A stretch of DNA of 64,000 bases from a bacterium (GCA_965261595.1 CBDHDG010000006.1:1568001-1632000), one strand, 5' to 3'; shown: positions 34,456 to 36,450, counted from the first letter of the stretch. The notes: a model not told the origin generated them from the letters alone. Numbers and translations are program-made.

Positions 34456-36450
34456 TTATCCGTACATCAGGTACAGGCTCACAATCACGAAGACGCCCAG
34501 GAGCATCGCCAGGGCGTAGTTCTGGACGCCCCCGGTCTGCACCCGGCGCAGCCCCCGCGCCCAATTCGTCAGAATGACCCCGACGCCGTTTACGGCGCCG
34601 TCCACCGTCTGAAGGTCAAAGATGCCGGACAGCTTGCTCAGCCAGACGGTCAGCCAGGATGTCCCGTTCACAGTCCCGTCCACGCCTTTGGCGTCCACCG
34701 TGTACAGGGCCTTCATCAGCCACATGATGGGGCGAACGATGCAGGCGTCGTAGATCTCGTCCACCCAGTACTTGTTCAGCAGCAGTTGGTAAGTCCCCTG
34801 GAACTTCTCGCTCAGCCGCTTCGGGACCTCCAGGTTTTTTGTATACATAAAGCGCGCGAGCATCCAGCCTCCGACGCCGATCGCCACCGACACCACGGCC
34901 AGGACCCAGAGAAGGGCCGTGGACGCGTGGGCCTCGCCCCCCCCCGCCGCCGTCCCGAAAACGGGGCCCAGGTAGGCGTGGAACGCGTTGTATCCGGGGA
35001 TGCCCACCCAGCCGCCCACGATCGCCAGAGCCGCCAGGATGATCAGCGGCGTCGTCATCGCCGCGGGGGACTCGTGCAAGTGATGGGTCGCCTCGGGGAC
35101 CACCCGCGACTTTCCGAAAAACGTCATGTAGATCAGCCGGAACATGTAGAAAGCCGTCATGAACGCGGCCAGAATGCCCAGAACCCAGACGAAATAGTTG
35201 CCCGACGTGAAGGCCTCGGCCAGGATCTCGTCCTTGCTGAAAAAACCGGCAAGGGGAGGAATCCCCGAGATGGCCAGCGCGCCGATGTAGAAGGTCAAGG
35301 ACGTGACGGGCAGATGCTTACGGAGCCCGCCCATGAACCGCATGTCCTGGCGGCGCCCTTCGTCCGGGTCCCCGTGCAGGGCGTGGATGACACTGCCCGA
35401 ACCCAGAAAGAGCAGTCCCTTGAAGAAGGCGTGGGTCATCAGGTGAAAGATGCCCGCCGTGAAGGCCCCCACCCCCAAGGCCAGGAACATGTAGCCCAGT
35501 TGGCTCACCGTGGAGTAGGCCAGGACGCGCTTGATGTCGTTTTGGACCAAAGCGATGCTGGCGGCGAAGATGGCCGTCAGCCCCCCGACAACGGCCACCA
35601 CCTCCATCGAGACGGGGGCCAGCAGGTACAAGGTGCTCGATCGGGCCACCATGTAGACCCCGGCCGTCACCATCGTGGCCGCGTGGATGAGCGCGCTCAC
35701 CGGCGTCGGCCCCTCCATGGCGTCGGGGAGCCAGGTGAACAGGGGGAGCTGGGCCGATTTGCCGACGGCCCCGACGAACAGGCAGAGCGTGATGAGCGTG
35801 GCCGCCGAGGCGGCGGCCGATCCGGGGCCCGCGGCGCGGGCCTGCTCAAAGACGCCCGCGTAGTCGAGCGTGCCGAACACCTGGAAGATCAGGAACACGC
35901 CGAGCAGGAAGCCGGCGTCGCCGATGCGGTTCACGATGAACGCCTTCTTCCCGGCGTCGGAGGCCGATTTCTTGTGGTACCAGAACCCGATGAGCAGATA
36001 CGAGCAGAGCCCCACGCCCTCCCAGCCGACGAACATCAGCAGGTAGTTGTTCCCCAGAATGAGGAGGAGCATGGCGAACATGAAGAGGTTGAGGTAGGTG
36101 AAAAAGCGCGAAAAGCCCGGGTCGTCGCGCATGTAGCCGGCGGAATAGACGTGGATGAGGAAACCCACCCCCGTCACGACGAACAACATGATCGAGCTGA
36201 GGGGATCGACGAGGAAGGCGATCTCCGCCCGGAATCCGGCGGCGACGACCCACTCGAACAAGCGGACCTGGATGGTTTCCCCGCCGAGGACCGTCCGGTT
36301 GAGGACGATCAGGGCGAAGAGGAGCGAGAGCCCGGTCGCGGCCAACGCCACCCAGTGGGCGCGCCGGCCCGTCCAGCGGCCGAAGAGACCGTTGATGAGC
36401 GCCCCCAGGCCGGGGAGCGCGACAATCCAAGGAACGAGCGTTTCCGCCAT
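34456..36450 (-). CDS. nuoL: complex I subunit L (operon 2) with lengthened lateral helix
   Basis: GWEGVG, KSAQLPL.TWLPDAMEGPTP and THAFFK; duplicated VDGxVNG unit. Confidence 0.95.
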   Translation of the reverse strand: MAETLVPWIVALPGLGALINGLFGRWTGRRAHWVALAATGLSLLFALIVLNRTVLGGETIQVRLFEWVVAAGFRAEIAFLVDPLSSIMLFVVTGVGFLIHVYSAGYMRDDPGFSRFFTYLNLFMFAMLLLILGNNYLLMFVGWEGVGLCSYLLIGFWYHKKSASDAGKKAFIVNRIGDAGFLLGVFLIFQVFGTLDYAGVFEQARAAGPGSAAASAATLITLCLFVGAVGKSAQLPLFTWLPDAMEGPTPVSALIHAATMVTAGVYMVARSSTLYLLAPVSMEVVAVVGGLTAIFAASIALVQNDIKRVLAYSTVSQLGYMFLALGVGAFTAGIFHLMTHAFFKGLLFLGSGSVIHALHGDPDEGRRQDMRFMGGLRKHLPVTSLTFYIGALAISGIPPLAGFFSKDEILAEAFTSGNYFVWVLGILAAFMTAFYMFRLIYMTFFGKSRVVPEATHHLHESPAAMTTPLIILAALAIVGGWVGIPGYNAFHAYLGPVFGTAAGGGEAHASTALLWVLAVVSVAIGVGGWMLARFMYTKNLEVPKRLSEKFQGTYQLLLNKYWVDEIYDACIVRPIMWLMKALYTVDAKGVDGTVNGTSWLTVWLSKLSGIFDLQTVDGAVNGVGVILTNWARGLRRVQTGGVQNYALAMLLGVFVIVSLYLMYG

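Follow-up and report, generated by a model that had tools for sequence, protein, structure and literature searches.

How many pumps does a complex I carry when the lateral helix (HL) of its NuoL subunit is longer than usual, but its operon encodes only one NuoM? The question is raised by a window of 64,000 nucleotides (the whole stretch of DNA analysed here) from a bacterial genome (GCA_965261595.1, CBDHDG010000006.1:1568001-1632000), in which two complex I gene sets, operon 1 and operon 2, lie head to tail on the minus strand (Table 1). The NuoL of operon 2 (NuoL2) scores 775.2 bits on the NCBIfam model TIGR01974 (cut-off 407.5), which places it in the NuoL family. In the Pfam search nuoE, F, G and I were absent from operon 2, and NuoM2, encoded between nuoL2 and nuoN2, was its sole nuoM product, this last in agreement with the original prediction made from the window alone.

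In papers citing Chadwick et al. (2018), a 2M complex I is an enzyme with an elongated NuoL plus one further NuoM (PMC6606698, PMC9040806, PMC7117926, PMC11636273). The original prediction had taken the long HL of NuoL2 for the signature of such an enzyme, with an arm of subunits L-M-M-N whose extra pump might be a second copy of the same NuoM, the NuoM of operon 1 or the product of a gene now lost.

NuoL2 has a duplicated module in its lateral helix

Within NuoL2 the motif VDGTVNG begins at residue 590 and VDGAVNG at residue 616, a distance of 26 residues or 78 nt (window positions 34585-34683), and two 20-nt DNA copies at the same 78-nt spacing (34586-34605 and 34664-34683) are 80% identical. 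BLASTP aligned NuoL2 with NuoL1, the short-HL NuoL of operon 1, at 55% identity over the whole length, with gaps of 4 and 21 residues in NuoL1 inside the HL; the N-terminal part of the NuoL1 helix and its single unit plus the anchor helix (transmembrane helix 16, TM16) align with the two ends of the NuoL2 helix, and the gap falls between them. When the last 130 residues of NuoL2 were searched against the Protein Data Bank with HMMER, both units aligned to one segment of solved NuoLs (8qby_L 650-660, for example), and an HL with two units was not found in any solved chain matched. The repeat exceeds chance, and the predicted 26-residue duplication, with its motifs 78 nt apart, is confirmed by BLASTP, by HMMER and by the DNA copies. 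Counted from the N of NK to the Q of QTG, the span is 79 residues in NuoL2 versus 54 in NuoL1; the 80 and 55 residues given originally are the same difference under slightly different counting. The net gain of the NuoL2 helix is 25 residues, with a unit period of 26.

The segment preceding the two units, module 0, is also 26 residues long and opens with the related motif VDExYD; its consensus in short-HL NuoLs is nKyYvDE.Yda. From these alignments the HL reads as modular, with two modules in ordinary NuoLs and three in NuoL2. Among 57 long-HL NuoLs from operons with one nuoM, fD...VDGxVN is kept in both units (consensus of unit 1, fD..vvDG.VNG), and the mean pairwise identity of the extra unit 1 (0.445) is close to that of unit 2 (0.415), module 0 (0.451) and TM16 (0.441).

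The span was measured in a sample of 161 NuoLs, 75 of them long including that of the window. Its distribution is strictly bimodal, with 86 sequences at 53-56 residues, 71 at 79-81, four at 89-90 and none between. The four longest, all from Acidobacteriota (L031, L046, L049 and L174), carry the extra module and, in the initial part of the HL, some ten residues more.

Structure prediction with AlphaFold2 (AF2) gave a NuoL2 model with a mean predicted local distance difference test (pLDDT) of 86, in which the main helix of the HL is unbroken from residue 561 to 631; the corresponding helix of the NuoL1 model (mean pLDDT 90.8) runs from 558 to 610. Up to about residue 620 the NuoL2 model matches solved NuoL chains with Z ~52 (VIA-align over the top Foldseek chains), and the search returned only ordinary NuoL chains, none of which aligned through TM16. 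NuoL2 thus shares with the solved NuoL, Nqo12 and ND5 chains (8e9g_L, 7p64_L, 4he8 and 8qby_L) the fold of residues 1 to ~620 and the TM15-HL-TM16 layout; it differs in having twice the unit that every solved chain found has once.

The long lateral helix is common beside a single nuoM

The 74 long-HL loci other than that of the window were examined for the genes following nuoL. A collection scan of 80 loci yielded 13 long NuoLs, of which two, both from Nitrospira, lie in L-M-M-N loci and the other eleven are followed by one M. A search of 81 Nitrospirota genomes with an HL fragment gave 13 full-length matches; 12 were new, ten in the order L-M-M-N and two L-M-N. The same fragment matched 48 of 81 Acidobacteriota genomes, at 49 places. 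Twenty-eight of these places, chosen by contig room and with G159 left out, were read: twenty are L-M-N, six end at M and lack a nuoN within 4 kb, two more are interrupted by a contig end, and the order L-M-M-N occurs in none of the 28. Over the 74 loci as a whole, 51 are L-M-N, 12 are L-M-M-N (all Nitrospirota), ten are L-M only and one is unread. Whole-genome counts of PF00361 genes (six in a Udaeobacter genome; eight in a Binatia genome, two of them in a separate cluster) revealed no spare nuoM beside the long-HL operons of these two genomes. Both nuoE and nuoF are absent from all 29 long-HL operons that reach nuoC/D and present in 20 of 22 short-HL operons.

Three loci displayed apparent M-M pairs (L007, 11978-13726; L072, 11960-13538; L133, 16232-17827). 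These were rejected as second nuoM genes, since in each of them one nuoM is broken into two reading frames, the cause being a frameshift or, for the genome that L133 comes from, an in-frame TAG.

Judged by gene content, the NuoLs with the extra module define a family of enzymes with a long HL, one nuoM and no nuoE or nuoF, to which an unlinked nuoI is added in the phylum of the window. Operon 2, with its span of 79, its L-M-N order with a single nuoM and its lack of nuoE and nuoF, is on the same grounds an ordinary member of this large, old family, which has a long strap, one nuoM and no NADH module. Because the same insert, whose frequent occurrence in verified single-M complexes the original prediction had named as a refutation, is so common beside a single nuoM, at genome level in 51 of the 74 other long-HL loci, it is not a pointer to a missing gene, and the idea that the insert betrays one is not supported.

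No third nuoM is found in the genome or in its phylum

In the genome of the window (G000; 6.17 Mb, 7 contigs, 96.7% complete) the PF00361 genes number six, and none lies outside the window; they encode NuoL, NuoM and NuoN of operon 1 and of operon 2. The phylum, which is Methylomirabilota-like, was covered by a search of 51 genomes with NuoM2; a third nuoM was found in none of the 51, and the maximum was two per genome. Higher raw counts have simple causes, the four matches of G007 being two identical pairs on contigs C8 and C11 and the three of G040 including one gene whose two halves lie at contig ends; in G019, which is 79% complete, there was no match. In 19 of the 20 phylum genomes whose gene order was read, the order is A-B-C-D-H-J-K-L-M-N with one M, and in the twentieth (G009), where the place of M was unread in the gene-order scan, the NuoM2 search finds the gene there. 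These counts, in genome and phylum, show no sign of a nuoM hidden elsewhere, or of the lost one that had been among the proposals.

Two relatives are particularly informative. G004 and G005 (2.1 Mb, 95% complete, 2 and 6 contigs, both in the same family) have a NuoL of span 79 and three PF00361 genes each (L, M and N), a single nuoM among them. Both lack operon 1 and gave no NuoF match, so that the long-HL enzyme lacking nuoE, F and G is their only complex I (loci L121 and L122).

The L-M and H-J spacers had been suggested as the expected places of a second nuoM (M') and of nuoI. They are indeed, by open reading frame (ORF) coordinates, the two widest gaps of operon 2 (88 and 82 nt), and the AAGGAG reported there is present, although it overlaps the nuoL stop codon instead of following it. 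As hosts of a gene remnant, however, both were rejected, being too short; in relatives the L-M gap varies (about 90, 100, 44 and 17 nt, from homology-trimmed starts), and the stop-to-stop reading frames of H and J touch or overlap one another.

By sequence, nuoI is not lost at all but conserved as an unlinked gene in the phylum. A second nuoI, encoding 152 aa, lies on another contig of the genome (G000:C7:1000893-1001348; L145:8891-9349, minus strand), where its neighbour is a thioredoxin-disulfide reductase gene; on TIGR01971 the nuoI product reaches 120.8 bits (cut-off 113.05). Full-length orthologues with at least 50% identity occur in 45 of the 51 phylum genomes, with fragments in three more, and in G004 and G005 this unlinked gene is the only nuoI. 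It probably supplies subunit I to the enzyme of operon 2, and together the operon and this gene encode an 11-subunit core.

Relation to 2M enzymes and to other long-helix NuoLs

The 2M complex I of Nitrospira and others carries an HL insert of the same kind, about 26 residues in length and in the matching position, and its cluster lacks nuoE and nuoF, as operon 2 does (PMC9040806, PMC6606698). What operon 2 does not share is the defining second nuoM, which is missing from the operon itself, from the rest of the genome and from all of the phylum, and for this reason we do not file it as 2M. The signature seen originally is supported as to the kind, length and position of the insert, and not supported as a pointer to a missing gene. 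The inserts also differ in detail. In the Nitrospira L-M-M-N NuoLs (read in loci L009, L014, L148-L153 and L155-L158) the TM16-side unit is without VDGxVNG (consensus ..YaGLNvIGY..), whereas NuoL2 and the other long-HL NuoLs beside one nuoM keep this motif in both units.

In a FastTree phylogeny of the 161 NuoLs, calculated with the insert columns removed, NuoL2 and 20 relatives form one clade. This joins the 12 NuoLs of the Nitrospira L-M-M-N loci, one NC10 locus and one long-branched Chloroflexi sequence in a group of 35 (support 98); NuoL2 is thus placed with the NuoLs of Nitrospira 2M enzymes. The NuoM sequences were analysed in two ways. With FastTree, 56 NuoMs of long-HL operons with one M, including NuoM2, form a single clade (support 100). 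With IQ-TREE (mixture model, 49 sequences), NuoM2 falls inside a clade of 16 (support 93); the Nitrospira M adjacent to nuoN joins four single Ms (92) and then the 16 M2-type sequences (80), and the Nitrospira M adjacent to nuoL stands apart. This topology would fit a history in which the long helix was in place before the arm gained a second M.

The trait itself is already in print for one other group. Yu, Chadwick, Lingappa and Leadbetter (2022, mBio) report a 2M-type HL insert in the NuoLs of Complex_I_1 and Complex_I_2 of Ca. Manganitrophaceae, in clusters with one nuoM and canonical content and order, and leave open whether it denotes a capacity for an extra pump or an evolutionary transition (PMC9040806). 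Operon 2 belongs to another phylum, is without nuoE, F, G and I, and has its nuoI unlinked. In the literature searched, only PMC9040806 and PMC6606698 were relevant to a long HL with one nuoM, and no description beyond that of Yu et al. (2022) was found.

A proposed four-position pump arm from three genes

The reading we favour treats the HL as a series of 26-residue docking modules, each opening with a VD[EG]x[VY][ND]-like motif. Between TM15 and TM16, NuoL1, every solved NuoL and ordinary NuoLs in general would have two such modules, and NuoL2 would have acquired its third by an old tandem duplication of the second. Given the canonical ends of the HL, the docking motif and the exact length, the helix most likely runs straight across the width of one more subunit. 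At 1.5 Å per residue, a module of 26 residues would extend over ~39 Å, and this is about the width of one antiporter-like subunit. The geometric case for an arm sized for one more subunit is a fair one. Hence the original proposal of an arm sized for L-M-M-N fits the 2M-type insert and the geometry; a gene for the extra pump was found in neither operon, genome nor phylum.

Since the genome holds no further antiporter-like gene, one pump subunit of the operon would have to be used twice, the fourth position being taken by a second copy of NuoM2 or, less likely, of NuoN2. The HL would then act as a ruler that sets the pump number to four, and three genes would yield an L-M-M-N arm. With no NADH module, the enzyme would link quinone to some other donor or acceptor (a role proposed for ferredoxin in published work on 2M enzymes), and each turnover would move one proton more than in an ordinary complex I. 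That the arm has four positions with one subunit built in twice seems to us a real prospect, if somewhat short of an even chance. A little more tentative is the fuller account, in which the three-module strap is the ruler for four pumps from three genes, NuoM2 or NuoN2 being used twice, and the Nitrospira L-M-M-N enzyme is a later stage with the doubled position spread over two genes.

Two further results bear on this reading. Enlargement of the neighbouring subunits was considered as a use for the added HL length and rejected, as NuoM2 and NuoN2 have no extra membrane helices: the additional 46 C-terminal residues of NuoM2 are hydrophilic and NuoN2 is of normal length. A complex prediction for two copies of NuoM2 (residues 6-500, 54-row alignment) scored 0.00 against a mark of 0.42, a result obtained without controls that counts neither way.

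Several observations weigh against the four-position arm. AF2 is unsure at residues 619-641 of NuoL2, where pLDDT falls below 50, versus 67-88 at the matching end of NuoL1, so the straight path of the helix is not secure. On the NuoL tree the long and short HL states change 11 times, at least six of these changes being forced by starred branches, and in two Acidobacteriota genomes (L078 and L176) a long and a short NuoL are sisters; such repeated changes mean that modules may come and go easily with gene number unchanged. The NuoM tree has moderate supports (80 and 92) and very long branches, and an approximately unbiased (AU) test did not reject a single clade of both Nitrospira Ms (p 0.267); the order of a long helix first and a second M later is therefore not established. 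Finally, no complex I relative is known to use one antiporter-like subunit twice in one arm.

As to the sister pairs themselves, their support is 100 in L078 (104-2224 and 10911-12224) and 82 in L176 (2-718 and 8082-10157), a pattern suggestive either of conversion between paralogous genes or of a module recently gained or lost.

Alternative explanations

The main alternative is an ordinary three-pump L-M-N arm with a longer brace. The extra module would then loop or kink out, or carry TM16 farther by the width of one subunit, past NuoN onto NuoK, J, A or H, and would stiffen the arm and add no pump. This is the simplest reading, one gene corresponding to one protomer; the enzyme has exactly three antiporter-like genes throughout the phylum, and both the uncertain AF2 segment and the repeated flips of HL state at constant gene number agree with it. 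A loop, however, would not be expected to have so exact a length (79-81 in 71 of 75 long NuoLs) or to conserve the docking motif, and the similarity of unit 2 and TM16 to the canonical NuoN-side end of NuoL1 argues against docking elsewhere. Moreover, HL length matters in E. coli, where the insertion of as few as 6-7 residues between L and M is reported to lower pumping (PMC3274701). On balance we consider the longer brace unlikely, while giving it serious weight.

A fourth position might alternatively be held by a membrane protein unrelated to the antiporters and encoded outside the operon, or by lipid. Our counts covered antiporter-like (PF00361) genes only, and the unlinked nuoI illustrates that subunits of this enzyme can be encoded elsewhere. 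Such an occupant is nevertheless improbable, as 20 phylum loci contain no conserved extra gene in or beside the operon and the extra module keeps the motif of a module that docks on antiporter-like subunits.

Borrowing of NuoM1 as the fourth pump (L2-M1-M2-N2 or L2-M2-M1-N2), another suggestion of the original prediction, draws some plausibility from the position of operon 1 directly upstream of operon 2, both here and in 17 of the 20 phylum loci with the upstream region read. It cannot be the general answer, since G004 and G005 keep the long helix, with one nuoM and three PF00361 genes, and have neither operon 1 nor NuoF; operon 1, besides, is a complete set of 14 genes with its own short-HL NuoL. 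We regard it as very improbable.

Just as hard to credit is a relic, the functionless remainder of an ancestral second nuoM now lost, for although the nearest L-M-M-N NuoLs (Nitrospira) are sister to the NuoL2 clade and the AU test does not settle how the two Nitrospira Ms arose, the exact length and normal conservation of the insert across the phylum, Acidobacteriota, Verrucomicrobiota and Binatota, the lack of a gene remnant in either spacer and, as a weak hint given possible DNA carry-over, the near-identity of RNA-library contigs from four marine runs to operon 2 all speak against it.

Implications of the long lateral helix

If the extra module does cover a re-used fourth pump, gene counts in complex I relatives would not reveal how many protons go with each electron pair. 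A five-proton enzyme, annotated as ordinary, would then be present in a large share of soil and marine bacteria (Acidobacteriota, the Methylomirabilota-like phylum of the window, some Verrucomicrobiota and Binatota), with a bearing on reverse electron flow in organisms that live on weak electron donors. If the module is only a longer brace, HL length is an unreliable marker of 2M enzymes. G004 and G005 offer clean test cases: their genomes are small and near-complete, they have no complex I but the long-HL enzyme, and their antiporter-like genes are those for L, M and N alone.

Features of the window and neighbouring genes

Table 1. Coordinates of the two complex I gene sets and of the NuoL2 lateral-helix segments, counted from the first nucleotide of the window.
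Feature	Position	Strand	Evidence or remark
Operon 1	41313-56042	minus	complete 14-gene set nuoA-nuoN (Pfam)
Operon 2	31239-41153	minus	nuoA, B, C, D, H, J, K, L, M, N (Pfam)
nuoL of operon 2 (NuoL2, 664 aa, long-HL type)	34456-36450	minus	ORF; PF00361 and PF00662
HL module 0, residues 559-584, NKYWVDEIYD..., in all NuoLs	34699-34776	minus	aligns with the same part of NuoL1
HL unit 1, residues 585-610, VDAKGVDGTVNG..., extra module	34621-34698	minus	falls in the NuoL1 gap
HL unit 2, residues 611-636, FDLQTVDGAVNG...	34543-34620	minus	counterpart of the single canonical unit; aligns with the only unit of NuoL1
QTG motif and C-terminal anchor helix TM16, residues 637-664	34459-34542	minus	AF2 helix 638-663; collinear with NuoL1
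nuoL-nuoM spacer, 88 nt	34368-34455	minus	AAGGAG overlapping the nuoL stop codon
H-J spacer, 82 nt	37326-37407	minus	
nuoM of operon 2 (NuoM2, 546 aa)	32727-34367	minus	PF00361; TIGR01972, 649 bits
nuoN of operon 2 (NuoN2, 494 aa)	31239-32723	minus	PF00361; TIGR01770, 465 bits
nuoA, B, C, D, H, J, K of operon 2	36461-41153	minus	Pfam match for each
nuoL of operon 1 (NuoL1, 636 aa), short-HL comparator from the same genome	44387-46297	minus	Pfam
nuoM of operon 1 (NuoM1)	42797-44350	minus	Pfam; only other nuoM of the genome

The region of operon 2 (31000-41300) is matched, exactly or nearly, by short contigs of four marine metatranscriptome runs from as many studies (seawater and hydrothermal vent), and one contig of 278 nt has not a single difference at 32713-32990. 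Contigs of this kind cannot show strand, level or transcription proper, their uncovered parts mean nothing and DNA may have been carried over, so they give a weak hint that operon 2 is transcribed in the sea.

An insertion sequence of the IS3 family, 1405 bp long, is present in two copies that are 99.6% identical (7345-8749 and 28971-30375), with a partial copy at 1-402. One of the full copies, lying about 860 bp downstream of nuoN2, extends into the 3' end of a LexA-like ORF (helix-turn-helix and peptidase S24 domains) at 30307-31035.

Divergent from operon 1, on the plus strand, are genes for a NuoE/NuoF-like fusion protein of 574 aa (56384-58108) and for a formate dehydrogenase alpha subunit (58176-60965; TIGR01591, 802 bits, cut-off 666), which together probably form an NAD-linked formate dehydrogenase.

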